Below, in pieces: positions 1-38,365 of a stretch of 38,365 nucleotides of DNA. The notes under the pieces were generated by a model. That model saw only the letters and a list, made by a program, of their open reading frames with translations. It made no database searches and had not been told where the DNA came from. Location: the UHGV virus genome UHGV-0208091. One strand, written 5' to 3'. The DNA comes from a virus. Both the position numbers and the translations under genes were made by a program. Each line of letters starts with the position of its first letter. Within the stretch, counting starts at the first letter, position 1.

Positions 1-270
1 ATGTCATTTACCCTCACGCAAAATTTGAAGTCGTTTCGTACCATCCCATACCTTAATCTCGTTGAGCCGCTTAGTGCCGCGCCTGTAGCTGTGACATATA
101 CCGCAAAAGGGGTCGACAGTATCAACGGGACTACTGCAACGGTGCTGTTTGATACGCAGGCTGAGGGGCTGGAGGCTACAGGCCAGTTCTACTACTCTTT
201 CGAATTTACTGACCTTGCAACAATTTTTGAGGATGCAGAAACGGCACTAAAAAAAGAGATTTCAGAGTAA
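1..270 (+). CDS. hypothetical 89-aa protein inside the invertible segment, translationally coupled to the tailspike (orientation-1 companion gene)
   Basis: ATG at pos 1 sits 6 nt after AGGAG at 38355-38359 (window end) and directly after tailspike stop 38362-38364; open to 270; followed by terminator hairpin. Confidence 0.5.
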   Translation: MSFTLTQNLKSFRTIPYLNLVEPLSAAPVAVTYTAKGVDSINGTTATVLFDTQAEGLEATGQFYYSFEFTDLATIFEDAETALKKEISE

Positions 271-340: not shown

Positions 341-487
341 TTAGCACTTATGTAATCTGAACGCCAGGAGAATCGAAGTAATCAAAACTACAATCCATGC
401 TTCGGAAGCAAAAACCTGATGCATTACAGTGCCCCAACTAAATATTACGTATGGATAGATAAAATTACCCCACTTCCAGGTAACCAT
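341..487 (-). CDS. small hydrophobic ORF (48 aa, two hydrophobic stretches) downstream of the silent tailspike cassette
   Basis: ATG preceded by GAGGTGAAAA RBS on minus strand; not in the >=60-aa ORF track; would be co-transcribed with cassette 2 after inversion. Confidence 0.25.
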   Translation of the reverse strand: MVTWKWGNFIYPYVIFSWGTVMHQVFASEAWIVVLITSILLAFRLHKC

Positions 488-571: not shown

Positions 572-2236
572 TCAATCGATAGCTTCGATTTCAATGGATA
601 CAGGATACTCGTCATTAATAACGTTTGGTTGTGTGCCATCCAGATGAATATCGAATCCCTGCTTATTTGTTTCGCTAAATGTATTATCAGGAAGATTTCC
701 AGCATTAGTAATAAATACTGGCTCGAAGTTTTTATTTTTAGCAGTTGAGGTACTGGTTGCTAACCCTCCGCTTATAGTGGTTGTTGTCGTTACAGCTGGA
801 ACTGAGTCGGTGCGTGTAGTAATGCCAGCGTTCGCTCCGTTTGGAATATTTACGATATATTGCTGCTGAGAGGTGCTTGATAAATCACACCGGGTAGTAA
901 CTTTATATCTGTGCCATGGCGGCATTCCAACGACAGAGATAACTGAGTTCTGCCCTTTAAATAAAGTCCCCGTTAGTTTGCACTTCATTCCAGGCACGCT
1001 GATTATGCTTTCAGCCGGAAGAGTCGGGTGTGGGGTTGCCACACCGGCAACTGCCTCCGCAATGGCTAACCATGGACGGATTGTTAGCTGTGTAACCCCA
1101 GCAGTCAGGCCTAAACCTGCATTATGTTTATAGTTTTTGCAGTTTAGTTTTACATACCCAGTCAATCCAGCCTTTCTTACAAGGCGGCATGGTTGAGAGC
1201 TTGATGTAATTGGGTTTGCGGCAAAACCGTCATACCGGAAATCAGCAGATCCATCAACGCGCGCTTTATCAGCTGCATAAAGTGCCGTGCTGTTACCGCC
1301 GACCTCCCACCATCCCATCATGTCGATATCGCAGTTATACAGATTATCTGCGCGTGAGCCGTCACCGACATAGATGCCATATGACGCCGCAGTGATTCCG
1401 TGCTGGAAGCCAAAGTTGGAAATGCTGGCGCCATAAAACGAAAGCGTTTGATCGTCAGTAGATGCAGGGTTTGAGTGGAACCAGATCCCACGCTGTGACG
1501 TCCTGACGACGACATTATCTACCCTGATAACTTCAGTCCATCCTTTGTCGTTGTATACATCTATTGCTGTTCCAGTAGTGTAATCTCGAATTACGGAGTC
1601 AAATACTGAACCGCCATAAAAATCTGAGAACCTGACAAACGCAGTAGCAAGGGCGTTCCCAACTGCGGTGAAATTTTTAAGAATTACCGCATTAAACAGA
1701 CTCTGCGCCTGCGCAGTACGCTTAAACGTCAGGGCGACGTTTGCGCCGGTATGGGTAATTACTGGAATGTTGCCCTTCGTTCCCATTCCTGGGCCTTCAA
1801 TGATAAGCCCGTTTGTTGAGTTAATGAACTCCAGCCCACCAACTAACGTATACCCGGCAGGCCCCAGTGACGGGGTTGAGAAGTAACCAATGGAGTTCTT
1901 AATGCAATAGTTAATTGCACTGGTCCAGATGTCGTCAAGAGCAGCACCATCATAAAGACCGAACTCTGTCGCGCAGACTTTGCCGGGGTTTTTTGGGATG
2001 CGTTGCCAGTAGTACTCAGATTGACCTGTCGGCACGCATATATAACCACCATCATCCTCAGCTGAGCCTCGCCTTGAAATAAATTCTCCGCCACCAACGG
2101 GACCGTGAGACATTGCGGCCCAACCGACAGGATGGGCGCGCAATAAAATACTTTGACCTTCATATGAAGGAACAACAGAGCGCAGAGCAGTAAATGATGA
2201 TACCTGCCCCACCAAAGCAAAGCCTTCGCCTGAACC
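572..2236 (-). CDS. promoterless alternative tailspike C-terminal domain cassette (right-handed beta-helix / pectate-lyase-like, depolymerase-like), 554 codons; reading frame continues through the crossover site with no ATG
   Basis: 547-aa ORF (track start is TTG) stays open upstream through 2225-2250 to a stop at 2264-2266; peptide across site NLGSGEGFALVG matches junction motif NLGSGEEGVG of tailspike 36259-38364; beta-helix-like G/N/T-rich repeats. Confidence 0.7.
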   Translation of the reverse strand, partial: GSGEGFALVGQVSSFTALRSVVPSYEGQSILLRAHPVGWAAMSHGPVGGGEFISRRGSAEDDGGYICVPTGQSEYYWQRIPKNPGKVCATEFGLYDGAALDDIWTSAINYCIKNSIGYFSTPSLGPAGYTLVGGLEFINSTNGLIIEGPGMGTKGNIPVITHTGANVALTFKRTAQAQSLFNAVILKNFTAVGNALATAFVRFSDFYGGSVFDSVIRDYTTGTAIDVYNDKGWTEVIRVDNVVVRTSQRGIWFHSNPASTDDQTLSFYGASISNFGFQHGITAASYGIYVGDGSRADNLYNCDIDMMGWWEVGGNSTALYAADKARVDGSADFRYDGFAANPITSSSQPCRLVRKAGLTGYVKLNCKNYKHNAGLGLTAGVTQLTIRPWLAIAEAVAGVATPHPTLPAESIISVPGMKCKLTGTLFKGQNSVISVVGMPPWHRYKVTTRCDLSSTSQQQYIVNIPNGANAGITTRTDSVPAVTTTTTISGGLATSTSTAKNKNFEPVFITNAGNLPDNTFSETNKQGFDIHLDGTQPNVINDEYPVSIEIEAID

Positions 2237-2250
2237 CAGGTTTACGCGAA
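2225..2250. other. gix/hix-like recombination crossover site (right), TTCGCCTGAACC-CA-GGTTTACGCGAA
   Basis: 26-bp imperfect palindrome matching Hin/Gin/Cin site architecture (TTC..AACC-NN-GGTT..AA); lies 44 bp upstream of invertase gene; reverse complement is 24/26 identical to 36668-36693. Confidence 0.8.
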
Positions 2251-2293
2251 CAATATCGGCAATTTACAATCTGCCTTTTCAAAGGGTTGCATA

Positions 2294-2845
2294 ATGTTGA
2301 TTGGCTACGCGCGGGTGTCTACCGGCGATCAAAACCTCGATTTGCAGAAAAACGCGCTGGTTCGCGCAGAATGTGAGCACATTTTCGAGGACACAGCGAG
2401 CGGGAAAAATGCCCGGCGGCCAGGGTTAAAGCGAGCGCTTCGGCGGCTCCGCCCGGGTGATGTGCTGGTGGTCTGGAAACTGGATCGGCTTGGCCGCAGC
2501 GTGCGCGATCTGATTACGCTCGTATCGGAGCTACAGGCGCGCGGGGTAAATTTCCGAAGCCTGACCGATAGCATCGATACCAGTACGCCAGCAGGCCGCT
2601 TTTTCTTCCACGTCATGAGCGCCCTGGCGGAAATGGAGCGCGAGCTGATCGTTGAGCGTACCCGTGCCGGTTTAACCGCTGCGAGGGAGCAGGGGAGAGT
2701 CGGCGGCCGCCGCCGGATAATGACTGAAGAAGTGGTGGAGCGGTGCCGCCGAATGCTGGAGAACGGCGCTACCCGGCAACAGATCGCAGATGTGATTGGG
2801 GTGAATGTGAAGACGCTATATAAGTACCTACCAGCCGCTGTGTAG
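2294..2845 (+). CDS. serine recombinase, DNA invertase of the Hin/Gin/Cin/Pin family
   Basis: 183 aa; GYARVSTGDQNLDLQ catalytic Ser motif, VVWKLDRLGRSV, FFHVMSALAEMERELIVERT, C-terminal HTH; near-collinear with Hin. Confidence 0.95.
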   Translation: MLIGYARVSTGDQNLDLQKNALVRAECEHIFEDTASGKNARRPGLKRALRRLRPGDVLVVWKLDRLGRSVRDLITLVSELQARGVNFRSLTDSIDTSTPAGRFFFHVMSALAEMERELIVERTRAGLTAAREQGRVGGRRRIMTEEVVERCRRMLENGATRQQIADVIGVNVKTLYKYLPAAV

Positions 2846-2855
2846 TCATTGGGAT

Positions 2856-2872
2856 GGGGCATGGATGGGGCA
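2856..2872. repeat. arm-type-like direct repeat GGGGCATGGATGGGGCA (copy 1, embedded in tandem 11-mer GATGGGGCATG x2 at 2853-2874)
   Basis: exact 17-mer repeated at 3063-3079; G-tract rich. Confidence 0.5.
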
Positions 2873-3035
2873 TGGGAAGTCAGTGAAATCCGCCAAATAT
2901 TGCAAACAACGCATGTTGATCACTACATCCAGCCATTGAAAATGGCGCTCCTGGACGATATTTGTCGATTTTTAAAACTAACTCATCACCGTGGTGATAT
3001 GACGAGGGTGACTCACTACCTTGTTGATATATAAG

Positions 3036-3054
3036 GTTATTGTTTTCAAATAAC
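3036..3054. other. candidate attP core: inverted repeat GTTATT-(GTTTTCA)-AATAAC with 7-bp spacer overlapping int stop codon
   Basis: 6-bp inverted repeats flanking a 7-bp spacer, typical of tyrosine-recombinase core sites; immediately at 3' end of int; flanked by repeated 17-mers. Confidence 0.35.
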
Positions 3055-4299
3055 TATGCCTTGGGGCATGGATGGGGCAAAGTCCGATAATTTCTGGTTC
3101 AACATAGCAATCTGATCGCTGTTACTGTCGGCCATCCAGGCGCCGTAGACATTGAAAACCATTTGGGCGCTTGTGTGCCCCATCTGGCTCGCAATGAAGC
3201 TGGGGTTGGCCCCGGCTGAAAGTGACCAGCAGGCATAAGTGTGTCTGGACTGATATGCTTTGCGATGCCTTAAACCAGAGCGTTTCAGCGCCGCCTCCCA
3301 TGAGTCACCAATTGAATCAACCTTGTAATGATAACCAACATTACTGCTTTTTCTGACCAACAAAGGATTGAACACAAATGTACAGTCATGAATAGCCGTT
3401 CGACCATACTCCCGTAGTTGTACCTCAATCTGATACTGCCTTCCCAGTCTGGTCATTTCCGCCTGGTTCCTCAAAGCGCTAATGGCTGGTTTGATCAGAT
3501 GCACGACCCTGTCGGTGCCGGCTTCGGTTTTTGGTAGAGTGAAATCACCAAGTTTCGTATAATTTCGGCGTATGGTCATCGTTCCAGCTTTCAGATCTAT
3601 GTCTTCCCATGCAAGGGAGACCAGCTCACCGTGGCGTAATCCTGTGTAAACCGCAACAGACCACAGGTTTTTCGTTTGCTGATGCGGGCAGGCATCTATG
3701 AAACGAATAAATTCGTCACGAGTGAGTGGATCAGGTTCTATCCTGGCCCTTTTAAGCGGCCTGATTCCGTTAAACGGGTTTTCTCGGATATAACCATTAT
3801 CAGCGGCAAACTGAAACATGCCCGCTATGGTGGTCATGTAATAGTTTACCGTCGCCACGCTCAACCCCTTTCCCCCCGACAACATATCCTTCCTGACATA
3901 CAACAGGTCTTCCCTAGTCACGGATGAGGAAAGCTTGTTTCCGCCAATCCTCAGCAGCATATTCCTTACAACCGATTCATACCGGTCCAGAGCATTAGCG
4001 CAGATCTCCATCCGTTTCAGGTCAAGCCATTTTTCAGACAGCTCTTTCACGGTAATTTCTTTCTTGCCGATACCGAAAATTTTCAGGTTTGGCGAGTTGG
4101 GGAACTGCGCCGCATAGTCAAAGGTCCCCATGCGGATAGCAAAACATACTGACGTTCGCAGATCCCCAGCCACCTTCCTGTTTTTAGCGGTGTCAGGGAC
4201 ACCGAGGTTTTCCCTGACACGCTTACCTTTAAAAATGAACCATATGCGGAGTGATTTTCCGTGGTTCTCAACGCCCGTTGGGTATGATTCTTTACTCAT
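3046..4299 (-). CDS. int: phage integrase, tyrosine recombinase (lambda-Int family)
   Basis: 417 aa; C-terminal R...HxxR...Y catalytic signature (LRHRKAYQSRHTYACW...GHTS...YGAW); N-terminal arm-binding-like domain; position next to att and xis-like gene. Confidence 0.9.
   Translation of the reverse strand: MSKESYPTGVENHGKSLRIWFIFKGKRVRENLGVPDTAKNRKVAGDLRTSVCFAIRMGTFDYAAQFPNSPNLKIFGIGKKEITVKELSEKWLDLKRMEICANALDRYESVVRNMLLRIGGNKLSSSVTREDLLYVRKDMLSGGKGLSVATVNYYMTTIAGMFQFAADNGYIRENPFNGIRPLKRARIEPDPLTRDEFIRFIDACPHQQTKNLWSVAVYTGLRHGELVSLAWEDIDLKAGTMTIRRNYTKLGDFTLPKTEAGTDRVVHLIKPAISALRNQAEMTRLGRQYQIEVQLREYGRTAIHDCTFVFNPLLVRKSSNVGYHYKVDSIGDSWEAALKRSGLRHRKAYQSRHTYACWSLSAGANPSFIASQMGHTSAQMVFNVYGAWMADSNSDQIAMLNQKLSDFAPSMPQGIVI
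3063..3079. repeat. arm-type-like direct repeat GGGGCATGGATGGGGCA (copy 2, inside int 3' end)
   Basis: identical to 2856-2872. Confidence 0.5.
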
Positions 4300-4645: not shown

Positions 4646-4858
4646 TCATTCAGCTGTCTCCTGTTCAGCTTCGATGATGGCATCCACAGCCATCATCAGA
4701 GTTCTGGCGAGGTCGTCGTAATCCGTCCAAGCATCGTTGCTGAAGAAGTTCGTGATCATAACTGGTGCAATTTTTGCGATAAGATACTGACGATAAGTCA
4801 TACCACCAGGCGTTGCGTTGCTTGGATTTGGGTATGCATAATGCTGGCCGTTTCTCAT
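4646..4858 (-). CDS. hypothetical early protein (70 aa)
   Basis: ORF in early-left operon, ATGA overlap with upstream gene. Confidence 0.45.
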   Translation of the reverse strand: MRNGQHYAYPNPSNATPGGMTYRQYLIAKIAPVMITNFFSNDAWTDYDDLARTLMMAVDAIIEAEQETAE

Positions 4859-5079: not shown

Positions 5080-5794
5080 AATGTTTTTCCTCCCATCCGA
5101 TAGCCTGAAAGAGTCCCATTTTCGGGTGATACCAACGGGTCCCACGTGGTTCGGCTTCTGCCATCATTTGGCGGAATGCTTTCATAAAAGGTTCAAACTC
5201 CACGATAGCCCGCCGTGAGAGCAGGCCGTCAGGTGTCATAAACTCGTGAGTATCGGTGGGGATACGGTATGCGTTAACAAGGTTTCGGCACTTGGCATCG
5301 GTCATGCCGCTTTTTGCGACCACCTGGCGATAACCGACATACCCGGGCCGCATATTTCCTCGCTTAATGTTTTCGACAGCTTCCGCGACGGTTTCAACCT
5401 GTTCTTCAACCTGGTAGAGGCGTCGCTCCTGCTCAACATTCAGCAGGGCCATTTCAGCGATCAGCTCTGCCTGCGATTTTGGCCGGGAGCGTTCTTCTTC
5501 CAGCTCTTTCCAGCGATCTACCAGCCTGGCGGTAAACTCGGGGCTAAGTTGCGCGACCACAATGATGCTGTCGCGTTTTCCTTCTTCACCTGAAAATTTG
5601 TAAACCTCGTCATTGACGGCAAATCCTAAGTTATTGATTCTTTCGAGAACCTCAATTTGAGGAGACCGGATAACGTCCTTTGAAGCCAGTGTCACAATGG
5701 TACGTTTCACGTTGTCGTGGCGTTTCTCTACCAGCTCGGCGATCTCAAGGCTGGTCATGGATGGTTTGTTAGTGATCAAGTTATTCATCATCAT
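5069..5794 (-). CDS. Rha-family phage regulatory protein (antirepressor-like)
   Basis: N-terminal MTSLEIAELVEKRHDNVKRTI motif typical of Rha (KilA-N/ORF6N like); about 241 aa; start among three consecutive ATGs 5794/5791/5788. Confidence 0.75.
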   Translation of the reverse strand: MMMNNLITNKPSMTSLEIAELVEKRHDNVKRTIVTLASKDVIRSPQIEVLERINNLGFAVNDEVYKFSGEEGKRDSIIVVAQLSPEFTARLVDRWKELEEERSRPKSQAELIAEMALLNVEQERRLYQVEEQVETVAEAVENIKRGNMRPGYVGYRQVVAKSGMTDAKCRNLVNAYRIPTDTHEFMTPDGLLSRRAIVEFEPFMKAFRQMMAEAEPRGTRWYHPKMGLFQAIGWEEKHCEG

Positions 5795-5799
5795 TCCCC

Positions 5800-6378
5800 T
5801 CAATGCATAATCGGTGCTTCTGGCACACCTTCGATCTGGATGTGTTCGATAAAGCTGTCATGGAGGAGGTTAAGCCCCTCCCGGCCAAGTGCTGATAACC
5901 TGAACCCAAATTCTTCGTCAGCAATAACCATGTCCTGATACATCCGCAGCGCCAGCTGCTGGCCAACCTCTGGCCCATATTTCTCGATTGCCCCCAGCTC
6001 AATATGGTTGGCGAGCGCAAAGCGTTCAGGTCCCGGATAGATGCTAATGGCGCCATGCTTGCTGGAATAGATAACAGCAGTATCAACACCGCCAGTATCA
6101 TTCGGAACGTCGACAGTTCCGTTTTTCTCCAGCTCCTCAGTGATGAACACGGCAGCCAGTAGCCAGCGCCAGAGGATCAACTCTTTTTCGATATTGAGCG
6201 TGATCCAGTTGCTTTCTACCGCTTCCATGATGCAGGCCAGAATTTCCATTCCATCGGCAAGGTGTTTGTCATAGCGACCGTTATCCAGCAGGCGAATTGC
6301 AGCGGAGTAGCCAATCACCCGGTTTCCAGACCGGATCCCTGTTGAGGTTGGTTCCGGGTTAAGCATGTTGTGAAGCAT
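5800..6378 (-). CDS. hypothetical early protein (192 aa)
   Basis: ORF with GAGGTG RBS; operon context. Confidence 0.5.
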   Translation of the reverse strand: MLHNMLNPEPTSTGIRSGNRVIGYSAAIRLLDNGRYDKHLADGMEILACIMEAVESNWITLNIEKELILWRWLLAAVFITEELEKNGTVDVPNDTGGVDTAVIYSSKHGAISIYPGPERFALANHIELGAIEKYGPEVGQQLALRMYQDMVIADEEFGFRLSALGREGLNLLHDSFIEHIQIEGVPEAPIMH

Positions 6379-6790
6379 TGCGCACCTCTGCTGGTTTGCT
6401 GGCCTGAAGTTCTTCGCGCTCTTTCACGTAGCGGTCGTGCATGGCATCCCACTTTTCGCACCACTTTTGCATTTCTCTTTTGCGGGCGAGGATGCGACGC
6501 AGTCGGCGAACGGTGCGCTGGTGGGCGCGGTGGTATTCGTCGGTAGTTTCGCCACGGCGCCACATTTCGTTTCCTTCATGCTCCACAAGGTAATCAGGGT
6601 GGCGTTGCTTAAACCCGGACAAAGCGAAGGTATGCGACGTCAGAAAGTGGGCCAGCCAGCTGATGGCGGTACCGCGGCTAAAGCAACGCTTCATGCGGCC
6701 GTGACGAATAGCGGCGTACAGGTCGCCGACTGGCGTGTGGTGCTTCTGTAATGCCAGATCAATAGCGCTGGCAGTGCGGTTGTCGATCAT
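6359..6790 (-). CDS. hypothetical early protein (143 aa)
   Basis: ORF with GGGAGA RBS. Confidence 0.5.
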   Translation of the reverse strand: MIDNRTASAIDLALQKHHTPVGDLYAAIRHGRMKRCFSRGTAISWLAHFLTSHTFALSGFKQRHPDYLVEHEGNEMWRRGETTDEYHRAHQRTVRRLRRILARKREMQKWCEKWDAMHDRYVKEREELQASKPAEVRNASQHA

Positions 6791-7005
6791 TTGTCTTTCT
6801 CCCGGTTATAGGTTTCATGACTCATAACTTCCCAGTTCCGGCCATCGTCTTTCGATAACAGGCGCCAGCGTGGGTTAACCTTCAGGCTGAGGTAGCCGGT
6901 GCGGCGCATTCGCCGCGGGAATATCCTCCGGCGCCGATACCGCAGCAGGACCTGCAGCGCCTGCAGGTGAACCCTCTCAGGAATTCGTATCGCTGTCAGT
7001 GCCAC
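6787..7005 (-). CDS. hypothetical small basic protein (61-72 aa)
   Basis: ORF overlapping 3' end of upstream gene by 29 nt; alternative GTG start at 6972. Confidence 0.3.
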   Translation of the reverse strand: MALTAIRIPERVHLQALQVLLRYRRRRIFPRRMRRTGYLSLKVNPRWRLLSKDDGRNWEVMSHETYNREKDK

Positions 7006-7231
7006 CAGCTACCTCCTCAAATCTCAGCTCCATTTCTCGCGCCATTTCGATAAACGTGGCCAGTGTGCAAATGTGCTCGTCGTCGAACAGCTGGCGGTCG
7101 CATATCACCCTCCCGTTCTCGATGTGCACGACTACCCGCCCGGTAAAATCAGGGAGGACATGCAGATCCACGTTCAACACGGGGCGGGGGATCAGCACAC
7201 CCTGATAGAGCATTGTTTGCTGGTTATTCAT
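6977..7231 (-). CDS. hypothetical early protein (84 aa)
   Basis: ORF with GGAG RBS 9 nt upstream. Confidence 0.5.
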   Translation of the reverse strand: MNNQQTMLYQGVLIPRPVLNVDLHVLPDFTGRVVVHIENGRVICDRQLFDDEHICTLATFIEMAREMELRFEEVAGGTDSDTNS

Positions 7232-7589
7232 TGCCGGACTCCGCAGTAACTGGTTTCTGCTTTTTGACGAACTCCACCAGTTCAGAAATAAGCTCGTCGA
7301 TTAACTCTTTCCCGCTTTCTGTGAGGAATTCGCCGCTGCCATTAACATCAACAGAGTTGCTGTAAATTCCCTTAAGAACTTTCACACCTTCCACATTTCC
7401 GTATTCACCGAGCGCCAGTCGCTCGAATTTCCGCAACAATCCATCAAGAAGAATCTCAGTTAATTCGATAGTACTAATCCCACCCTTGTTAAGCTTAATG
7501 ACAAGTAAGCTACTCCCAGTCTTTCGCTGGTGGCGTAACAAGGCTGCTTTTAAAATTCGGCGGCGATAGGTAGTAATTAAGTTACTCAT
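7224..7589 (-). CDS. hypothetical early protein with arginine-rich N-terminus (TYRRRILKAALLRHQRK)
   Basis: 121 aa; AAGGGG RBS; TAGATG junction with upstream gene; ARM reminiscent of N-type antiterminators (weak). Confidence 0.5.
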   Translation of the reverse strand: MSNLITTYRRRILKAALLRHQRKTGSSLLVIKLNKGGISTIELTEILLDGLLRKFERLALGEYGNVEGVKVLKGIYSNSVDVNGSGEFLTESGKELIDELISELVEFVKKQKPVTAESGNE

Positions 7590-7814
7590 CTAATTACCCC
7601 TTCTTTTGTGTTCTTCATTTTGCTGTACAATCTTTTCCTCTTTTTCCATCCATGAATAGACCTCGCCAGCAAGGTCATATGCAAGACCTAAAACCCCATC
7701 AAGTTGATGGCAGTCAAAGTCCTTATGATGTGTGAAAATTGTCTGCATAAAGAAGTTAAGTTGCTCAGCCTTAATGGTGACGCACTGAATATCTTGGCGG
7801 CGCTGCATACCCAT
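7590..7814 (-). CDS. hypothetical early protein (74 aa)
   Basis: GGAGGT RBS 5 nt upstream of ATG. Confidence 0.5.
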   Translation of the reverse strand: MGMQRRQDIQCVTIKAEQLNFFMQTIFTHHKDFDCHQLDGVLGLAYDLAGEVYSWMEKEEKIVQQNEEHKRRGN

Positions 7815-8507: not shown

Positions 8508-8572
8508 TTGTTTTTTTGGTATAGGTAGATTTAAAAGGGAGGAACGGGCAAAAGCCCGTTGTCTATCAATAA

Positions 8573-9247
8573 TTAACCGAATCTGTTAATGTTGAAAGGA
8601 ACTGATGAGATAACTTTTGACTGGATGTAGAGCATATCCAAGGCATCCTTCTCGATGCTCCAAGATTGGTAATTCGAGTTGTCAGATAATACTACAATTT
8701 TGCTGCCTATTTTTTGCAGCCTCTTTACATAACATTCACCTTCAAAACAAAAAGCATAAATCCCGTCACCATCGAAGTATGTTATTGTTTTATCTAGAAA
8801 TAATAAATCACCCGGTGCTATTGTTGGCGACATGCTATCACCCCTGGCATTGCCAATCTCAATGTTCTTGAAGGGTCTGTTGCCTACAACTTGACGGGCG
8901 TACTCGGGGTCTAACTCTATGGAGCGGACCACATCAATGAAGTCACTTTTCACGCTAACTCCATCACCACAACTGAATTCAATATCTAATACTTTGAATT
9001 TAACGCTATCAGTATCTCCTTTTTGAGCGGACGCAGGGAAGGTGGCGGGTTGTCCCTCACCCAGAAACCAGGATTGTGGGTATCCACTGATTTCAGAAAG
9101 CTGGGCTAATCTCTTACCCCTTGGGACAGTGTCTCCCTTCGTCCAGTAGACAACCGTCTGCGTGCTAACCCCTAACTGACGAGCCAGCTCGGCTTTACTC
9201 CACCCTTTTTCCTTCAGAAGTTCTTGAATCATGTTTGCCATGGCCAC
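8573..9247 (-). CDS. cI: CI-like prophage repressor (HTH_XRE + S24 LexA-like autopeptidase)
   Basis: 224 aa; N-terminal HTH (SKAELARQLGVSTQTVVYW), C-terminal GDSMSPT Ser and KR Lys dyad; divergent from cro. Confidence 0.9.
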   Translation of the reverse strand: MAMANMIQELLKEKGWSKAELARQLGVSTQTVVYWTKGDTVPRGKRLAQLSEISGYPQSWFLGEGQPATFPASAQKGDTDSVKFKVLDIEFSCGDGVSVKSDFIDVVRSIELDPEYARQVVGNRPFKNIEIGNARGDSMSPTIAPGDLLFLDKTITYFDGDGIYAFCFEGECYVKRLQKIGSKIVVLSDNSNYQSWSIEKDALDMLYIQSKVISSVPFNINRFG

Positions 9248-9299
9248 TGTATCTCTCCAAAAGTTTCATTAAAGCCATTATCTAAAGCAATGCTTGATC

Positions 9300-9314
9300 T
9301 CAAGTTTAACGCAT
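9300..9314. promoter_or_regulatory. operator OR half-site (TCAAGTTTAAC...)
   Basis: left half matches OL palindrome 7/7, right half degenerate. Confidence 0.4.
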
Positions 9315-9363
9315 GGTTTTACTTCTTGCATGTTAATTAAATCTTGATATAGACTCATTCAAA

Positions 9364-9378
9364 TAAAGTTTAACTTGA
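9364..9378. promoter_or_regulatory. operator OR site TAAAGTTTAACTTGA (14/15 match to OL palindrome)
   Basis: in cI-cro divergent intergenic region 10 bp before cro ATG. Confidence 0.6.
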
Positions 9379-9387
9379 TGGTGATTT

Positions 9388-9621
9388 ATGAACGAAGAGA
9401 TTCGGGTGAAATTGTGTGCCATTACTTCCCAAAGAGCGATTGCTCAAGGCTTGGGAGTAACTCCCCAGGCAGTGAATCAGTGGTTTGCTAAGTCTGTAAT
9501 CCCTGCTCGCTTTGTATTGAAACTTTGCGAATTTGTCGGCTGGGCCATTACCCCTCATCAGGTTCGCCCTGACTTGTATCCAAGCGAGCTTGATGGGATG
9601 CCACGAATTGCAGAGGTGTGA
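9388..9621 (+). CDS. cro: Cro/YdaS-like HTH regulator
   Basis: 77 aa; QRAIAQGLGVTPQAVNQW HTH; divergent from cI. Confidence 0.8.
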   Translation: MNEEIRVKLCAITSQRAIAQGLGVTPQAVNQWFAKSVIPARFVLKLCEFVGWAITPHQVRPDLYPSELDGMPRIAEV

Positions 9622-9622
9622 C

Positions 9623-9742
9623 ATGTCACAACAGTCAACCGCTATGCCTGATCCGCGCTACTTCCTGAAGTTGCTGCCACGCAGCATCAGGTATGACCCA
9701 ATAAGCGGGATTTTTTACCTCATTGCGAAGCGGGCAGAGTAA
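9623..9742 (+). CDS. small ORF (39 aa) immediately after cro
   Basis: ATG 5 nt after GAGGTG; below ORF-track size cutoff. Confidence 0.3.
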   Translation: MSQQSTAMPDPRYFLKLLPRSIRYDPISGIFYLIAKRAE

Positions 9743-10339: not shown

Positions 10340-11998
10340 ATGCTTAACATCACACCGAACTTTGCACAGGAACGCGGGCTTAACATGCTGCGGCGCACCT
10401 GGAAGGCGCACGATTCCTTCATGGTCTACGCACCGACCGGAAGCGGAAAAACAGGCCTGGCTGCGTTTATCGCTTCCGGCCTGGTCAGTCGTGGTATGCG
10501 TGTTCTGTTTGTCGCCCCGTATACGATCCTGATTAACCAGACCGCCCAGCGCTTTACAGAATACGGGTTGCCGGAAGACCAGATTAGTTTTATTTGGCGT
10601 GATCACCCGAACTACGACCCTAATCTGCTGATCCAGATTGCGAGTGCTGACACGCTCATTAGGCGTGAATTTCCCAAAAACATCGATCTGCTTATTGTCG
10701 ATGAGGCGCACCTGCGTAAACGCCGTATCCTGAAAGAAATCGAACGGATCACAGCGGAGAAAAAAGCGAAGGTTATCGGTTTATCTGGTACCCCTTTTGC
10801 GCCGTTCCTGGGCCATTACTATCAACACCTGATTAAGCCAACGACGATTGGCGAATTGATCCAGCGTGGTGACCTCAGTAAGTACGAATTTTTCGCCCCA
10901 ACAAAACCAGATCTTAGCGGGGTAGAAACAAAGCCATCTATAGAGTTCGGTACTGATTACGACGAGTCCCAGCTGGCGGAAATCATGTGCGGTTCTGACC
11001 TGGTGGGCGATATCGTCGATAACTGGCTTCGTCATGGTCGTGACCTTCCTACGGTGGCGTTCTGCGTTAACAAGGCTCACGCAAACTTTGTAACCATGCA
11101 GTTTAACAAGGCGGGTATTAATGCTGAGGTCATGGTCGCAGAAACACCCCACGAAGAACGGCAGGTGATGATTCATCGCTTCGAGACTGGCGCCACAAAA
11201 ATAATCGTCAGTGTTGGTGTTTTGGTAGCCGGTTTTGATAGCGATGTTCGCTGCATTATCTACGCCCGGCCGACAAAGAGTGAAATCCGCTGGTTGCAGG
11301 CGCTTGGCCGCGGACTGCGAACTGCACCCGGGAAAGATGCCTGCCTGATTTTTGATCACAGTGGCACTGTGCATCGCCTCGGCTTCCCTGACTCCATCGA
11401 ATACGACGATCTGCCATCCAAAAACGACGGCATGAAAGCGGCCGCTGCCGGCGCAACTAAGGAACGCGAAGAAAAACTTCCGAAAGAATGCCCCGAATGT
11501 CATTTCATGAAGCCATCCGGCGTTTACGTCTGCCCAAAGTGCGGATTTAAACCGCTCGTTGGTCAGGACGTCGAGACTGACGGCACCCGCAACATCAAAA
11601 AAATGAGCAAGCACGAAACGGTTTATACCAAAAGCGACAAGCAGTCCTGGTGGAGTCAGATCAAGTTTTACCAGCGTCATCGTGCGGCGCAGGGGAAACC
11701 TGTCAGCGATGGCTGGTGTGCTCATACCTTTCAGGAGAAATTCGGCGAATGGCCCAACGGCTTAAGCGACTTTCCAATGGAGATCACACCGGAGGTCAGC
11801 AATCACATCAAACACAAACTTATCAAATTTGCTAAACGCCGCGAACGCCTGCAGCAGATGGGGAAGAAACCTGACCAGGATCTATTTCCACCTCCGAGCG
11901 CCAGTATCAAATATGAGCCTCCTGAGGGTAGCGATGGGCAATTAATTATCGAAGCAAAACGAAAGTTTCAGGAAAACGTAAACAGAGTGAGTCAGTGA
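10340..11998 (+). CDS. phage replicative SF2 (DEAD/DEAH) helicase with C-terminal zinc ribbon
   Basis: 552 aa; Walker A APTGSGKT, DEAH box LIVDEAH, motif VI QALGRGLR, CPECHF...CPKCGF zinc ribbon. Confidence 0.85.
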   Translation: MLNITPNFAQERGLNMLRRTWKAHDSFMVYAPTGSGKTGLAAFIASGLVSRGMRVLFVAPYTILINQTAQRFTEYGLPEDQISFIWRDHPNYDPNLLIQIASADTLIRREFPKNIDLLIVDEAHLRKRRILKEIERITAEKKAKVIGLSGTPFAPFLGHYYQHLIKPTTIGELIQRGDLSKYEFFAPTKPDLSGVETKPSIEFGTDYDESQLAEIMCGSDLVGDIVDNWLRHGRDLPTVAFCVNKAHANFVTMQFNKAGINAEVMVAETPHEERQVMIHRFETGATKIIVSVGVLVAGFDSDVRCIIYARPTKSEIRWLQALGRGLRTAPGKDACLIFDHSGTVHRLGFPDSIEYDDLPSKNDGMKAAAAGATKEREEKLPKECPECHFMKPSGVYVCPKCGFKPLVGQDVETDGTRNIKKMSKHETVYTKSDKQSWWSQIKFYQRHRAAQGKPVSDGWCAHTFQEKFGEWPNGLSDFPMEITPEVSNHIKHKLIKFAKRRERLQQMGKKPDQDLFPPPSASIKYEPPEGSDGQLIIEAKRKFQENVNRVSQ

Positions 11999-19050: not shown

Positions 19051-19515
19051 ATGGCAGGACGACGCCCGAAACCGACCCACCTCAAAGTGGTTACCGGCAA
19101 CCCGGGCAAACGCAAACTTAACGACAAAGAACCATCGCCAGCGCGAGAAATACCAAGCCCTCCAGAGCACCTCACTGACTGGGGAAAGGTGGCGTGGGGG
19201 AAACTGACCGTGCTGCTGGATGGCATGGGCATTTTAACCATTGCCGATACGCTGGCGCTCGAACGACTCTGCGATATTTACGCCGACATTCTGCAGCTTC
19301 GCCTGACTATTGCTGACGAGGGGCGAACTTACACCGTGAAGACAGAGGGCGGGTTTTTGATTAAGGCTAACCCGGCAGTAGCAATGTTGGCGGATGCAGA
19401 TCGACGTTTTAAAAGTTACCTGGTTGAATTCGGTCTGACTCCGGCCGCCAGAACGAAGGTGAAAGTGGATGGTGGAGAAAAAGAAGAAGACCCGCTCAAC
19501 CAGTTCTTCGGTTGA
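19051..19515 (+). CDS. terminase small subunit, P27 family
   Basis: 154 aa; MAGRRPKPTHLKVVTGNPGKR N-terminus characteristic of P27-family TerS. Confidence 0.8.
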   Translation: MAGRRPKPTHLKVVTGNPGKRKLNDKEPSPAREIPSPPEHLTDWGKVAWGKLTVLLDGMGILTIADTLALERLCDIYADILQLRLTIADEGRTYTVKTEGGFLIKANPAVAMLADADRRFKSYLVEFGLTPAARTKVKVDGGEKEEDPLNQFFG

Positions 19516-21211
19516 TCCCGCCACGCAATATGCGCGGGATGTAGACTCCGGCAAAGAAATCGCCGGTCCTGATATTAGAAACTCCTGTAAACGACATCTC
19601 AGGGATTTGGAGTCCTGTCATGCTCGCGGGTTGGTATGGGATGTTGCAGCGGCGCAGCGTGCCATCGACTTTTTTGCAAAAGTACTGAAGCTCAACGGTG
19701 GTGAGCATGAGGGAAAACCCTTCAACCTGCTACCGTGGCAGTGCTTTATTGTAGGGTCGATATTCGGCTGGAAGAACTCGGATGGTTATCGTAGATTTCG
19801 CATGGTGTACGTTGAATCTGGTAAGGGTTCCGGCAAATCACCACTGGCTGGCGGAGTGGGGCTTTACTGTCTAACAGCAGATAAGGAGCCTCGTGCCGAG
19901 ATATATGCAGCAGCAACGAAAAAAGACCAGGCCATGATCCTTTTTCGTGATGCTGTCGCGATGGTGGAGCAGTCCCCTGCGTTAGCACAGCGAATAAATA
20001 AATCAGGCGGTGCCGGGAAAGAGTGGAACCTTGCGTTTCTTCAGACAGGCTCATTTTTCCGGCCTATCAGTTCGGATGATGGGCAGTCAGGGCCACGCCC
20101 ACACTGTGCACTGATTGACGAAATTCACGAGCACAAAAACAACCAGGTTGTGGAAATGATGCGCGCCGGGACGAAAGGTCGTCGCCAGGCGTTGATTTTC
20201 ATGATCACTAACAGCGGCCACGACAAAACCAGCGTCTGCTACGACTATCACGAGTATGGGCGTAAAGTTGCCGAAGGCTCGATTGAGGATGACAGTTTCT
20301 TTTCTTTCATTTGCTCCCTGGACGAAGGAGAAGACCCATTCAAGGACGAGTCCTGCTGGAAAAAAGCAAACCCCTCTCTTGGTCATACTTTTACCGATCG
20401 CTACCTGCGTGAGCAGGTTACTCAGGCTCGGGGGATGCCGTCGAAGGAAAGCATTGTTCGGCGGTTAAACTTCTGTCAGTGGGTGGATGCCGATAACCCA
20501 TGGATGAGTAGCGATGTGTGGATGGGGTGCGAAGAGGACTTTGACCTGCAGGAGCTGCAGGGAGAAGAATGTTATGGCGGCCTGGACCTTTCAGGAACTC
20601 GCGACCTTACGTCTCTGGCGCTCTTTTTCCCTAAAAAAAGAAAGCTGCTGGTGGAGTTCTGGACACCAAAAGATACTTTGCTGGATAGAGCGAAAACAGA
20701 CCGCGTACCTTACGACGCATGGGAACGGGGAGGCTATATTCATACCACTCCCGGAAAGGCGGTGAAATATGGCTTTGTTGCTGAGCGCATTGCTGATCTT
20801 TCCATGTTGTTCGATATCAAGGCGATCGCCTTCGACCAGTACCGCATAAAATATCTTGAGCCGGAATTAGAGAGCGCTTCTGTATCAGTACCGCTGATAC
20901 CTCACGGGCAGGGATACTACAAGGCGCAGGATTCCGGACTGTGGATGCCTCATTCCATCGAACTTTTTGAACAGATGCTCGATGATGGCGTAATCATTAT
21001 TAAAACAAACCCCTGCCTCCGATGGAACGCTGCTTCCGCCGTAACCGAAGCCGACCAAAAAGAAAACCGCATATTCGCCAAGAAAAAGAGTACTGGTCGA
21101 ATAGATGGTGTGGTTGCGTCGGCGATGGCAATTGGTGCTGCAGAAGGTTATGAGCCTGATGATGGCGATATAGAGGGCTTTTTTGACGATCCGATCATAG
21201 TGGGTATCTGA
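19469..21211 (+). CDS. terminase large subunit
   Basis: 580 aa; ATPase and nuclease domains; overlaps TerS end; followed by portal. Confidence 0.85.
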   Translation: MVEKKKKTRSTSSSVDPATQYARDVDSGKEIAGPDIRNSCKRHLRDLESCHARGLVWDVAAAQRAIDFFAKVLKLNGGEHEGKPFNLLPWQCFIVGSIFGWKNSDGYRRFRMVYVESGKGSGKSPLAGGVGLYCLTADKEPRAEIYAAATKKDQAMILFRDAVAMVEQSPALAQRINKSGGAGKEWNLAFLQTGSFFRPISSDDGQSGPRPHCALIDEIHEHKNNQVVEMMRAGTKGRRQALIFMITNSGHDKTSVCYDYHEYGRKVAEGSIEDDSFFSFICSLDEGEDPFKDESCWKKANPSLGHTFTDRYLREQVTQARGMPSKESIVRRLNFCQWVDADNPWMSSDVWMGCEEDFDLQELQGEECYGGLDLSGTRDLTSLALFFPKKRKLLVEFWTPKDTLLDRAKTDRVPYDAWERGGYIHTTPGKAVKYGFVAERIADLSMLFDIKAIAFDQYRIKYLEPELESASVSVPLIPHGQGYYKAQDSGLWMPHSIELFEQMLDDGVIIIKTNPCLRWNAASAVTEADQKENRIFAKKKSTGRIDGVVASAMAIGAAEGYEPDDGDIEGFFDDPIIVGI

Positions 21212-36218: not shown

Positions 36219-36246
36219 ACCCGCTTCGGCGGGTTTTTTCATTTTT
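36219..36246 (+). terminator. rho-independent terminator after J-like gene
   Basis: ACCCGC-TTCG-GCGGGT then TTTTTCATTTTT. Confidence 0.6.
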
Positions 36247-36258
36247 GGAGCACAATGT

Positions 36259-38364
36259 ATGGCCAACATCGAAAAACTTGGCTCGTCATCACCAGAGGTA
36301 TTGCTTAAGAATGCAACTAACCTCGATAAGTTAGTCAATGGCCGGGAATCGGAATCATTACCTGATCGCTTTGGTGTACTGCGCAAAACCTGGCACGGCA
36401 TGGAGATGATCTTCAACCGTTTTATAGACTACATCACTGGTCGCGGCGAGCAGGCAGTTGCAGCTATCGGCTGGCAGGAGCTTGGCAACTGGGCTGTTGG
36501 TCTGGCTGTAGATAATCGCCAGCAGATCGTCTACTACAATGGCTCCTGGTACAAATACCTTGGTGAGCTTGAACACGTCATTGCCGGAGATTCTCCTGAG
36601 AACGATGGCGGTGTGTGGTCGGCTGCAAACCCCACAGGGAAATGGTCGAACATCGGTGACGCGGCTCTTCGCTCAAACCTGGGTTCAGGCGAAGAGGGGG
36701 TGGGGGATGCGTTACTTGCTGTCAAACAACCATACACAGGGGCTGTAGCCAGGACTCAGCACGACAAAAACTGGGACAGTATTAACCTTCTGGATTTTGT
36801 ATACGCCACGGACGTTGTAGATGGTTTTGTTGATTATGGTCTTGGGCTTAACCGCGCCATTGCCGCTATGAGTTCTTTAGGTTCAACCAGCGTAGAGCAT
36901 ATTCCCAGACGCAGAATCAATCTCCCCGCAGGTCTGCTGCACATCAAAACGAAAGTCGAACTTTCTTTTGGCCCCTTCGCAATGTGCGGCGAGGGGATAT
37001 TCCAGACCATCTTTGCTATACATCCCAGCGCAGCTTCAGATGATGATTATCTGTTTGACTTCAGCTCAGCCGGCTGGGATTCAACAGGAAGGGTCAGAAT
37101 ATCCGAACTTTATCTGAGTAACTTCTCAGTGCTTGGGGAAACTGCGAGCTGGATTCGTAAAAGAATCTTTAAATTCTACGGCGTCGGCTGGGATTTTGCG
37201 ATAGAGAACGTGCAGGTCTGGTCGCCTCCACTTTCGTCATTCGATATGACGGATGTCATGGACGGGGTATTTAATCAGGTGAGGATAAACTCCGGAGGCC
37301 GGTTCCTCACTGCAGGTTCAGAAGTAACGCATCAGATTAACATGCTGAATCAGTATGATAACTGTAATGCAATAAGATACATGAGCTGCCATTTTGAAAA
37401 CAACTATTCAGGCGTCTCTTATATTCGTGGTGGGTCAAACAACATTCTCTTTGGCGGAATGTGTAAATTTGAAAATAACAGCAGAAACAACCTTGTTCCT
37501 GTTAACCAGATTTACGGGTCCACCTCAGATAGTGTCAAATTTGAAAATATCTTCGTAAGCCACCCGGCCCATATCACAGTTTACTGGCTGGACAGCAATG
37601 GCCGCCACGTATCAATTCGCGGAGGCTCACTTATGAGCCCGTCGGATTTAGGTGGATATACCGGTCTGAGGTGGTTCCGCATCCACCGTACAAACTGGGC
37701 GAGTGCGACTGCGTGCGTTCAGCTGGTCGCTGATATTGACATGATGCATGTGGACGGGTACGGATATAACGGGGCGAATCAGCTCTCACCGTTTGATTTT
37801 GAGGGCGAGGTTATTTTCCGGGCAAAGGCTATTCGCCTGGCGCGACCAAATACCTTCATGTACATCAACTGGAACTGCAAAATTGATATTGAAAATCTGA
37901 CGCTGTTAGGTGCTGTTACCAGCGATTATCAGACCTCACTGTTTAATGTTGCCGCGTCATCAGTAAAGGCAGACGTAAACGTTGATAAATATAACGGCAG
38001 CGTTGTTGGAACTGTTTATGTCAATCCAGCAATGACCACCGCATCGCGCCGGCAGTCAATAATCAATGTGAGGGGTAAATCACTTCAGTCTTCATCACTG
38101 ACGCTCTCTGAGGGTACAGACCCTCTTGGTTATGATGAGTCCTGGACGTGGAATGCCTCGGGAAATGTAGCCAACATCGGATACTGCCATACAGGGAAGC
38201 GAATGGTTGTCAGATGTGCAGACACATCAAATTGCCTGATTGTCGGCGGTAATATTTTCCTTCCGGGTGGTGCGGTAACGGCTGCATGTACGATAACCCT
38301 GATGGCGATGAACACATCGTTCCGTCAGGGCTGGGTCGAAGTTTCACGGGTAGCAGGAGTCTAA
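36259..38364 (+). CDS. tailspike: N-terminal anchor (aa 1-141) + C-terminal right-handed beta-helix enzymatic domain (orientation 1 of invertible segment)
   Basis: 701 aa; beta-helix-like Asn/Gly-rich repeats; contains crossover site at codons 137-145. Confidence 0.8.
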   Translation: MANIEKLGSSSPEVLLKNATNLDKLVNGRESESLPDRFGVLRKTWHGMEMIFNRFIDYITGRGEQAVAAIGWQELGNWAVGLAVDNRQQIVYYNGSWYKYLGELEHVIAGDSPENDGGVWSAANPTGKWSNIGDAALRSNLGSGEEGVGDALLAVKQPYTGAVARTQHDKNWDSINLLDFVYATDVVDGFVDYGLGLNRAIAAMSSLGSTSVEHIPRRRINLPAGLLHIKTKVELSFGPFAMCGEGIFQTIFAIHPSAASDDDYLFDFSSAGWDSTGRVRISELYLSNFSVLGETASWIRKRIFKFYGVGWDFAIENVQVWSPPLSSFDMTDVMDGVFNQVRINSGGRFLTAGSEVTHQINMLNQYDNCNAIRYMSCHFENNYSGVSYIRGGSNNILFGGMCKFENNSRNNLVPVNQIYGSTSDSVKFENIFVSHPAHITVYWLDSNGRHVSIRGGSLMSPSDLGGYTGLRWFRIHRTNWASATACVQLVADIDMMHVDGYGYNGANQLSPFDFEGEVIFRAKAIRLARPNTFMYINWNCKIDIENLTLLGAVTSDYQTSLFNVAASSVKADVNVDKYNGSVVGTVYVNPAMTTASRRQSIINVRGKSLQSSSLTLSEGTDPLGYDESWTWNASGNVANIGYCHTGKRMVVRCADTSNCLIVGGNIFLPGGAVTAACTITLMAMNTSFRQGWVEVSRVAGV
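36668..36693. other. gix/hix-like crossover site (left), TTCGCTCAAACC-TG-GGTTCAGGCGAA, inverted relative to 2225-2250
   Basis: 24/26 identical to reverse complement of 2225-2250, identical central dinucleotide, in identical codon phase. Confidence 0.8.
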
Positions 38365-38365
38365 A

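Follow-up and report, generated by a model that had tools for sequence, protein, structure and literature searches.

The 38,365-nucleotide (nt) viral genome UHGV-0208091, the whole of which is called the window here, is a circularly permuted Klebsiella pneumoniae prophage, that of a temperate siphophage. We conclude that it very probably carries a site-specific inversion switch of the Gin type, resembling the G segment of phage Mu, which exchanges the receptor-binding part of its tailspike. The sequence and its comparison with related loci showed two crossover sites placed in the tailspike reading frame, a neighboring gene homologous to Gin, both orientations of the segment in nature, and a crossover limited to the core of the site. 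Inversion is probably ongoing, and the two alternative C-terminal domains, A and B, presumably degrade different capsule types.

In the proposed mechanism, the serine invertase (2294-2845) would synapse the inverted 26-bp sites at 36668-36693 and 2225-2250, cut at their central TG and exchange the strands, flipping a 3920-bp segment. The promoter, the ribosome-binding site (RBS) and anchor codons 1-141 would remain fixed. In the present orientation, the anchor would read into domain A and an 89-amino-acid (aa) open reading frame (ORF), with a 701-aa product. After inversion, it would read into the unrelated domain B and a 48-aa ORF, with a 695-aa product. The displaced domain would become a silent, start-less cassette beside the invertase. 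A population of lysogens may then release virions of two receptor specificities, presumably for different capsule types.

The crossover sites and their reading frame

A first-pass annotation of this DNA had proposed the two 26-mers as partner crossover sites. When aligned, the site in the tailspike gene and the reverse complement of the site near the invertase were identical at 24 of 26 positions, as it had claimed, with the mismatches at site positions 6-7. This pair was the top-ranking inverted repeat of the entire window, and the window contained exactly two sites. No other pair with three or fewer mismatches was found in the window, and the number expected from 100 dinucleotide-preserving shuffles was zero, which ruled out a chance repeat. 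Each site was itself an imperfect dyad, symmetric at 9-10 of 12 positions.

The position of the sites within the coding sequence was also as the annotation described. The central TG (36680-36681, and 2238-2237 on the minus strand) occupied codon positions 2 and 3 of a CTG codon in both frames, which is Leu141 in the frame of the tailspike. The in-silico join of 36259-36681 to the minus strand from 2236 downward gave an open frame of 695 aa, compared with the present 701 aa. The statement that both arms encode one and the same linker could be kept only in part. NLGSGE was common to both arms, but the full nonapeptide was not, being LRSNLGSGE in the anchor arm and VRVNLGSGE in the silent arm. 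This difference is gone after crossover because the outer half-site keeps its place. The location of the site at a module boundary was borne out by comparisons with unrelated anchors, from sipho-type, myo-type and Mu-like tails, and with the tailspikes of lytic phages; in all of these, homology to the cassettes started no more than about 13 nt from the left end of the site.

Both orientations in natural prophages

We compared the window with ten K. pneumoniae loci encoding exactly the same invertase protein (L011-L020) and with two loci encoding a 182-aa invertase allele (L022 and L023). The ten loci all lay at one chromosomal site, beside CSD, pseudouridine synthase and type VI secretion system genes, and had two crossover sites each. 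Among these 13 loci, which share the A/B pair (11 of them with an identical invertase protein), A was in the expressed position in seven and B in six. The flipped arrangement that the annotation had predicted was found in L016 and L017, where both flanks, including the anchor side, were 100% identical to the window and the segment was inverted between the sites. The comparison of L016 (B on) with L023 (A on) was closer still: the left flank was identical at 3014 of 3014 positions, and once one segment was reversed, 2 of its 3920 bases differed from the other. The protein that L022 would make after a flip was, residue for residue, the one expressed in L016 and L017.

The predicted product of the in-frame swap also exists in nature, as annotated K. 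pneumoniae proteins of 695 aa (99% identity over 100% of the length). The best match to the hybrid (P0001) came from a prophage that has one tailspike and lacks an invertase, so the existence of the hybrid protein alone does not prove inversion. An AlphaFold2 model of this natural 695-aa hybrid, built on a 17-sequence alignment, had a mean predicted local distance difference test (pLDDT) score of 33.5 and was discarded.

Two loci had additional features. In a related prophage, at 8001-12986 of L009 (K. pneumoniae LR890512.1), the tailspike consisted of the anchor and domain B with a single site, without a second cassette or invertase; behind it came a Bac_transf gene and a gene for a 494-aa reverse transcriptase (RVT_1). 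In L022 (K. pneumoniae CP055451.1), an insertion sequence with a DDE_Tnp_1 transposase was located between the cassettes at 8520-9667 and extended the segment to 5120 bp.

Crossover mapping across the family

The database search that the annotation had recommended recovered related tailspikes with an embedded site, amounting to at least 163 site-linked domains from about 115 loci; a scan of IMG/VR gave at least 118 stretches. The 163 domains among the matches listed served as the mapping set, and the site counts that follow refer to them. Of the 52 silent sites, 50 had the outer half-site TTCGCGTAAACC, which none of the 102 expressed sites had. Conversely, 97 of the 102 expressed sites had an anchor-specific outer half, TTCGCTCAAACC or TTCGCCAAAACC. 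The variants of the inner half (GGTTCAAGCGAA, ..GCGAC and ..GACGAA) tracked the cassette cluster, whether expressed or silent, and the central dinucleotide was TG in 159 of the 163 sites. This segregation of the half-sites places the exchange between site positions 8 and 20, as is to be expected if both sites are cleaved reciprocally at the central dinucleotide.

The family is broad. At least 36 complete modules were found, each with an anchor site, a silent site and an invertase (86-95% aa identity), and the site-to-site distance ranged from 3.5 to 5.1 kb. The C-terminal domains fell into at least 59 clusters at 50% identity or more, and the anchors into at least nine. Many domain clusters were seen in both the expressed and the silent state, and the silent cassettes were intact ORFs across the family. 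The silent site was always located 43 nt from a Gin homologue, with its outer half fixed. The same A/B pair, together with the invertase, occurred on a gpJ-type siphovirus tail, on a myovirus baseplate with Caudo_TAP and on a Mu-like Gp45-48 baseplate. Among species-representative genomes, the sites occurred almost exclusively in Klebsiella and in near relatives, Pluralibacter and Sodalis among them.

The three tail modules were seen in K. pneumoniae L011-L020, including L013 at 5580-7688. In Klebsiella sp. WOUb02 (L143, L148, L150, L152 and L158), at least five copies of the site were present on the chromosome and one on a 276-kb plasmid.

The invertible segment and its cassettes

The invertible segment runs from 36682 through the end of the window (38365) and on from 1 to 2236. 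The parts follow in the order anchor, site, cassette A, 89-aa ORF, terminator, 48-aa ORF (minus strand), cassette B (minus strand), site, 43-nt spacer and recombinase gene (Table 1). The whole tailspike ORF occupies 36259-38364, and its anchor matched positions 2-138 of phrog_9823.

Table 1. Features of the switch and of the surrounding prophage in the window
Feature	Position	Strand	Remarks
Tailspike constant 5' part (anchor, aa 1-141)	36259-36681	+	Outside the invertible segment; RBS-like GGAG upstream of the ATG
Anchor-side crossover site	36668-36693	unstranded	TTCGCTCAAACCTGGGTTCAGGCGAA = TTCGCTCAAACC-TG-GGTTCAGGCGAA; 12-2-12 imperfect dyad; in frame, encodes (L)RSNLGSGE
Cassette A, C-terminal tailspike/depolymerase domain	36682-38364	+	Now fused to the anchor, aa 142-701
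89-aa ORF accompanying cassette A	1-270	+	Begins 1 nt past the cassette A stop codon; phrog_7836, E=4.6e-31
GC-rich hairpin terminator between the convergent cassettes	277-297	unstranded	8-bp stem, then ATTTTT on the + strand; scores on the - strand too
48-aa hydrophobic ORF accompanying cassette B	341-487	-	From translation; small gene behind the B-type domain in relatives
Cassette B, alternative C-terminal depolymerase domain	572-2236	-	554 codons plus stop; silent
Invertase-side crossover site	2225-2250	unstranded	Minus strand TTCGCGTAAACCTGGGTTCAGGCGAA = TTCGCGTAAACC-TG-GGTTCAGGCGAA; ends 43 nt before the invertase ATG
Promoter-like element TTTACG-18-TACAAT	2241-2270	+	In the 43-nt spacer, overlaps the outer half-site; candidate invertase promoter
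Gin/Hin-family serine DNA invertase	2294-2845	+	183 aa; Ser9; C-terminal helix-turn-helix (HTH); outside the invertible segment
Candidate recombinational enhancer region	2294-2383	unstranded	Within invertase codons 1-30
Integrase	3046-4299	-	Window gene
Large-terminase-sized ORF	19469-21211		Probable function from size and gene order

Cassette A shared 84-89% nt identity with the tailspike genes of the lytic Klebsiella phages Menlow, HMGUkp5, Carvaje and KpV17Sklif, and the phages with such tailspikes belong to four families. Its residues 143-216 matched the beginning of the catalytic β-helix domain of the Sf6 tailspike (E=7e-8). Cassette B had just eight open codons upstream, without a start codon. 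It matched positions 134-724 of phrog_9823 (E=4e-239) and the Klebsiella phage depolymerase of PDB entry 7lzj (E=2.4e-18), and it shared 75-81% nt identity with the tailspikes of KP591P1, 0507-KN2-1 and SopranoGao. No similarity between the A and B domains was detectable when they were compared, the best E value being 0.78. Neither form of the tailspike had a match in Pfam or NCBIfam, and the matches to protein families and structures came from PHROGs and the PDB.

Each cassette has a small companion gene. The 89-aa ORF holds an equal position behind the A-type domains of Carvaje, KpV17Sklif, Menlow and the prophage loci. The 48-aa gene was called behind the B-type domain in L011, L015, L017, L018 and L023, and in the lytic phage KP591P1 the region homologous to it includes a small annotated ORF. 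Searches with the two ORFs gave no Pfam match, no NCBIfam match and no tail-assembly PHROG. The ORFs may be cassette-specific accessory factors.

The invertase and its possible control elements

The protein encoded beside the silent site contained the Resolvase domain (PF00239, 2.1e-50) and HTH_7 (PF02796, 7.1e-9), and was assigned to the phrog_125 DNA invertases (1.7e-86). It matched Mu Gin (PDB 4m6f/3uj3) over residues 1-181 with E=1e-71, keeping the motif YARVS(9)T with Ser9, and it also matched the HTH domain of Hin. It carries Met where both Gin PDB chains have Val; these chains are those of the Fis-independent M114V mutant.

Across 39 distinct invertase alleles, the stretch ATTTACAAT of the promoter-like element was unchanged. 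In the same 39 alleles, synonymous diversity was 0.12-0.17 in codons 1-30 and 0.3-0.5 in the rest of the gene, a two- to four-fold reduction. This suggests that the first codons overlap a cis element, possibly a recombinational enhancer. A scan of the invertase 5' region with a degenerate Fis consensus gave a single shared match, a 15-mer centred at +78, at a position matching that in Mu gin. In Gin-family systems, the enhancer (sis), with its Fis-binding sites, normally lies in cis within the 5' part of the invertase gene. The switch may depend on Fis and such an enhancer, and, like other systems of this family, on negative supercoiling and the topology of the invertasome.

Contiguity of the segment and prophage context

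The annotation had named evidence that the two sites lie on separate molecules as fatal to its proposal. In chromosomal copies of the prophage, as well as in three lytic phages, we found the end of the window joined to its start, placing both sites on one contiguous molecule. The homologue of window 1-270 begins one nucleotide after the A-type domain in Carvaje, KpV17Sklif and Menlow, and the same one-nucleotide junction was present in the prophage copies encoding the identical 701-aa protein. The in-silico flipped window aligned to chromosomal prophages as a single block of 10.7 kb with 98.9% identity. These lytic-phage junctions and the single-block chromosomal alignment ruled out sites on different molecules.

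The match to the chromosomal prophages ended near window 2997, in the stretch that separates the invertase from the integrase. From this break in identity, we infer that the window is a circular permutation of the prophage, with attP located there. Within window 2846-3085, a motif, GGGGCATGGATGGGGCA, was observed on both sides of this break, at about 2856-2875 and 3063-3079, and may be an arm-binding site of the integrase. The window also encodes a 1136-aa tape measure protein and a 1027-aa gpJ-like protein.

A DNA site or a conserved peptide

The DNA dyad has decayed in the lytic phages Carvaje, Menlow and 0507-KN2-1, while it is held in the prophages. In KPP5665-2 (L161, MF695815.1), two identical sites, TTCGCTCAAACC-CT-CGTTTGGGCGAA, were located in non-coding DNA at 4757-4782 and 11247-11272. 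Each lies a short way upstream of the RBS and ATG of a complete tailspike gene, and the two genes, with products of 1221 aa and 650 aa, are convergent. The site pair adjoins an invertase gene that is 94% identical to that of the window. This arrangement looks like a version of the switch in which whole genes would be swapped. Because they are non-coding, the KPP5665-2 sites cannot be the footprint of a peptide. Together with the retention of the dyad in prophages and its decay in lytic phages, they argue that the 26-mer is selected as DNA.

Weighing of alternative explanations

Several observations weigh against an active, Gin-type switch of capsule specificity. The evidence on orientation is a comparison between isolates, not within one culture. 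The samples with the exact 701-aa protein and those with the exact 695-aa protein (P0026) did not overlap, none having both. Many prophage tailspikes, such as that of L009, have one site only, and the locus as stored contains no invertase; most loci of this kind are stored at a length that does not allow the presence of an invertase to be judged. The LR(S/Q)NL.S peptide at the junction of anchor and catalytic domain is kept in lytic phages without an invertase, and the conservation of the site sequence is partly at the protein level. The Fis-site scan of the invertase 5' region revealed no convincing pair, and none at a spacing of 48 bp. A K-type for the A domain, sought via phage Carvaje, was not obtained from the literature searched. 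In addition, a strong terminator-like hairpin (ACCCGCTTCGGCGGGT and a T run) at window 36219-36234 precedes the tailspike start codon by 25 nt, and nothing resembling a sigma-70 promoter was detected between the two, which bears on the transcription of the constant part.

Some of these points would fit a fossil switch, in which Gin-type inversion occurred in the past and is now locked by an inactive invertase or a lost enhancer, with orientation differences that are old and clonally inherited. The separation of the samples carrying the two exact products is in line with this, as are the candidate status of the enhancer, the loss of the module in L009 and L010, and the insertion sequence within the module in L022. 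We consider a fossil improbable, however. The invertase gene is an unbroken ORF that keeps both the catalytic Ser9 and the HTH, and the identical protein was found in at least 24 contigs; the silent cassette is still an open frame of 554 codons; and both orientations recur independently on three tail backbones. Near-identical prophages lie in opposite orientation, and as few as two differences in 3920 bp between them imply that the flips were recent. Even less probable is RecA-type homologous recombination at a conserved linker, with the 26-mer a footprint of the peptide and the adjoining invertase incidental. The identity between the arms extends over no more than some 20 bp, which does not exceed the minimum length for RecA exchange. 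LR(S/Q)NL.S.. is indeed kept at the junction in lytic phages without an invertase, and single sites without a detectable invertase exist, but Carvaje and Menlow keep the peptide and lose the dyad, whereas the prophage sites retain the 12-2-12 layout with TG in 159 of 163. The constant distance of 43 nt between the silent site, with its fixed outer half, and a Gin homologue, as well as the non-coding site pair of KPP5665-2 upstream of two start codons, likewise argue against it. Chance similarity or an assembly artefact, with window ends that are not truly joined, comes to mind since the window is a linear record whose ends the segment spans; we give this explanation hardly any credence, as shuffling predicted no matches and the junction 38365->1 recurs in independent phages and chromosomes. 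A shufflon or a diversity-generating retroelement (DGR) was ruled out by the type of recombinase, a serine enzyme, and by the presence of two sites only.

Relation to known switches

The in-frame design is not new in principle, and as far as the layout of the DNA can tell, the architecture is that of the G segment. As in Mu with Gin, and also in the P1 C segment with Cin and the e14 P segment with Pin, the gene for a small serine invertase is found immediately outside the segment. Mu likewise has two inverted 26-bp sites, each built of 12-bp half-sites around a 2-bp core (AAACC-NN-GGTT). One of them is inside gene S at the junction of the constant and variable parts (Sc, 169 aa; the window anchor, 141 aa), and the convergent alternative 3' parts each have their own small accessory gene (Mu Sv'/U', U/U'). 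The distance from the invertase-side site to the invertase gene is 43 nt in the window and about 54 nt in Mu. The Mu gix site, TTATCCAAAACC-TC-GGTTTACAGGAA, is identical to the window sites at 17-18 of 26 positions and differs at 8-9, with the core TC instead of TG.

The two systems differ in what is exchanged. Mu swaps tail-fibre tips, whereas the window swaps tailspike-type depolymerase domains that are mutually unrelated, and its 89-aa and 48-aa ORFs are not U-like (Caudo_TAP) tail-fibre assembly proteins. Unlike Mu, the window phage is a lambda-like siphovirus with a gpJ-type tip, and the module is also found on myo-type and Mu-like tails. One conserved site is common to at least 59 cassette clusters and at least nine anchor clusters. 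The Hin/hix flagellar switch of Salmonella belongs to the same recombinase family and has the same 26-bp site architecture, with inversion between two sites. Hin flips a promoter, with the hin gene inside the segment; in the window, a coding 3' half is swapped in frame and the invertase is outside. Shufflons and DGRs, too, generate variation at the C-terminus of adhesins or receptor-binding proteins. Shufflons do so with a tyrosine recombinase (Rci) and many sfx sites and DGRs with a reverse transcriptase, unlike the serine invertase and two sites of the window.

According to Latka et al. (2019, PMC6872550), the receptor-binding proteins of Klebsiella phages are modular, with an N-terminal anchor and an exchangeable depolymerase. 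The A and B domains fit this scheme, having close homologues in lytic Klebsiella phages of several families. Where such phages have several fixed receptor-binding proteins or exchange over evolutionary time, the swap in the window would be programmed and reversible, with a dedicated recombinase. In the literature searched, which was that outside subscription-only papers, we found no invertase-driven depolymerase or tailspike switch in Klebsiella. Term searches gave no such switch in a 2020 study of Klebsiella prophages (PMC7784688) or in two large Klebsiella depolymerase studies (PMC12491483 and PMC13385381). A 2018 survey of DNA inversion (PMC5903667), likewise searched by term, treats prophage tail-fibre inversions in general terms only, with no depolymerase switch. 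The mechanism is classic; what is new is the cargo of depolymerase domains and an in-frame site shared by dozens of domain families on several tail types.

Implications for Klebsiella phages

The interest of the system lies in this new cargo, in the breadth of the family and in its apparent absence from the searchable literature on Klebsiella depolymerases. A wider reading is that the 26-bp site serves as a shared docking sequence for a Klebsiella-wide pool of cassettes, with the invertase also recombining in trans between co-resident prophages or with infecting phages. We regard this as speculative and rather unlikely. If true, capsule specificities would be exchanged in the manner of an integron or shufflon, and lytic phages may draw on the pool as well, which would account for the degenerate remnants of the site in their tailspike genes. 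With dozens of natural domain families joined at it, the conserved in-frame 26-bp junction would offer tailspike engineering a ready-made splice point already validated in nature.

For phages that infect Klebsiella, the capsule type is the chief obstacle, and host range is set by the depolymerase tailspikes. With a programmed, reversible switch, one prophage would produce particles of two specificities. The silent cassette need not fit the capsule of the host, which would affect tools that take the K-type of the lysogen as a guide to depolymerase specificity, the mining of prophages for depolymerases, and predictions of host range or of gene transfer across capsule types.

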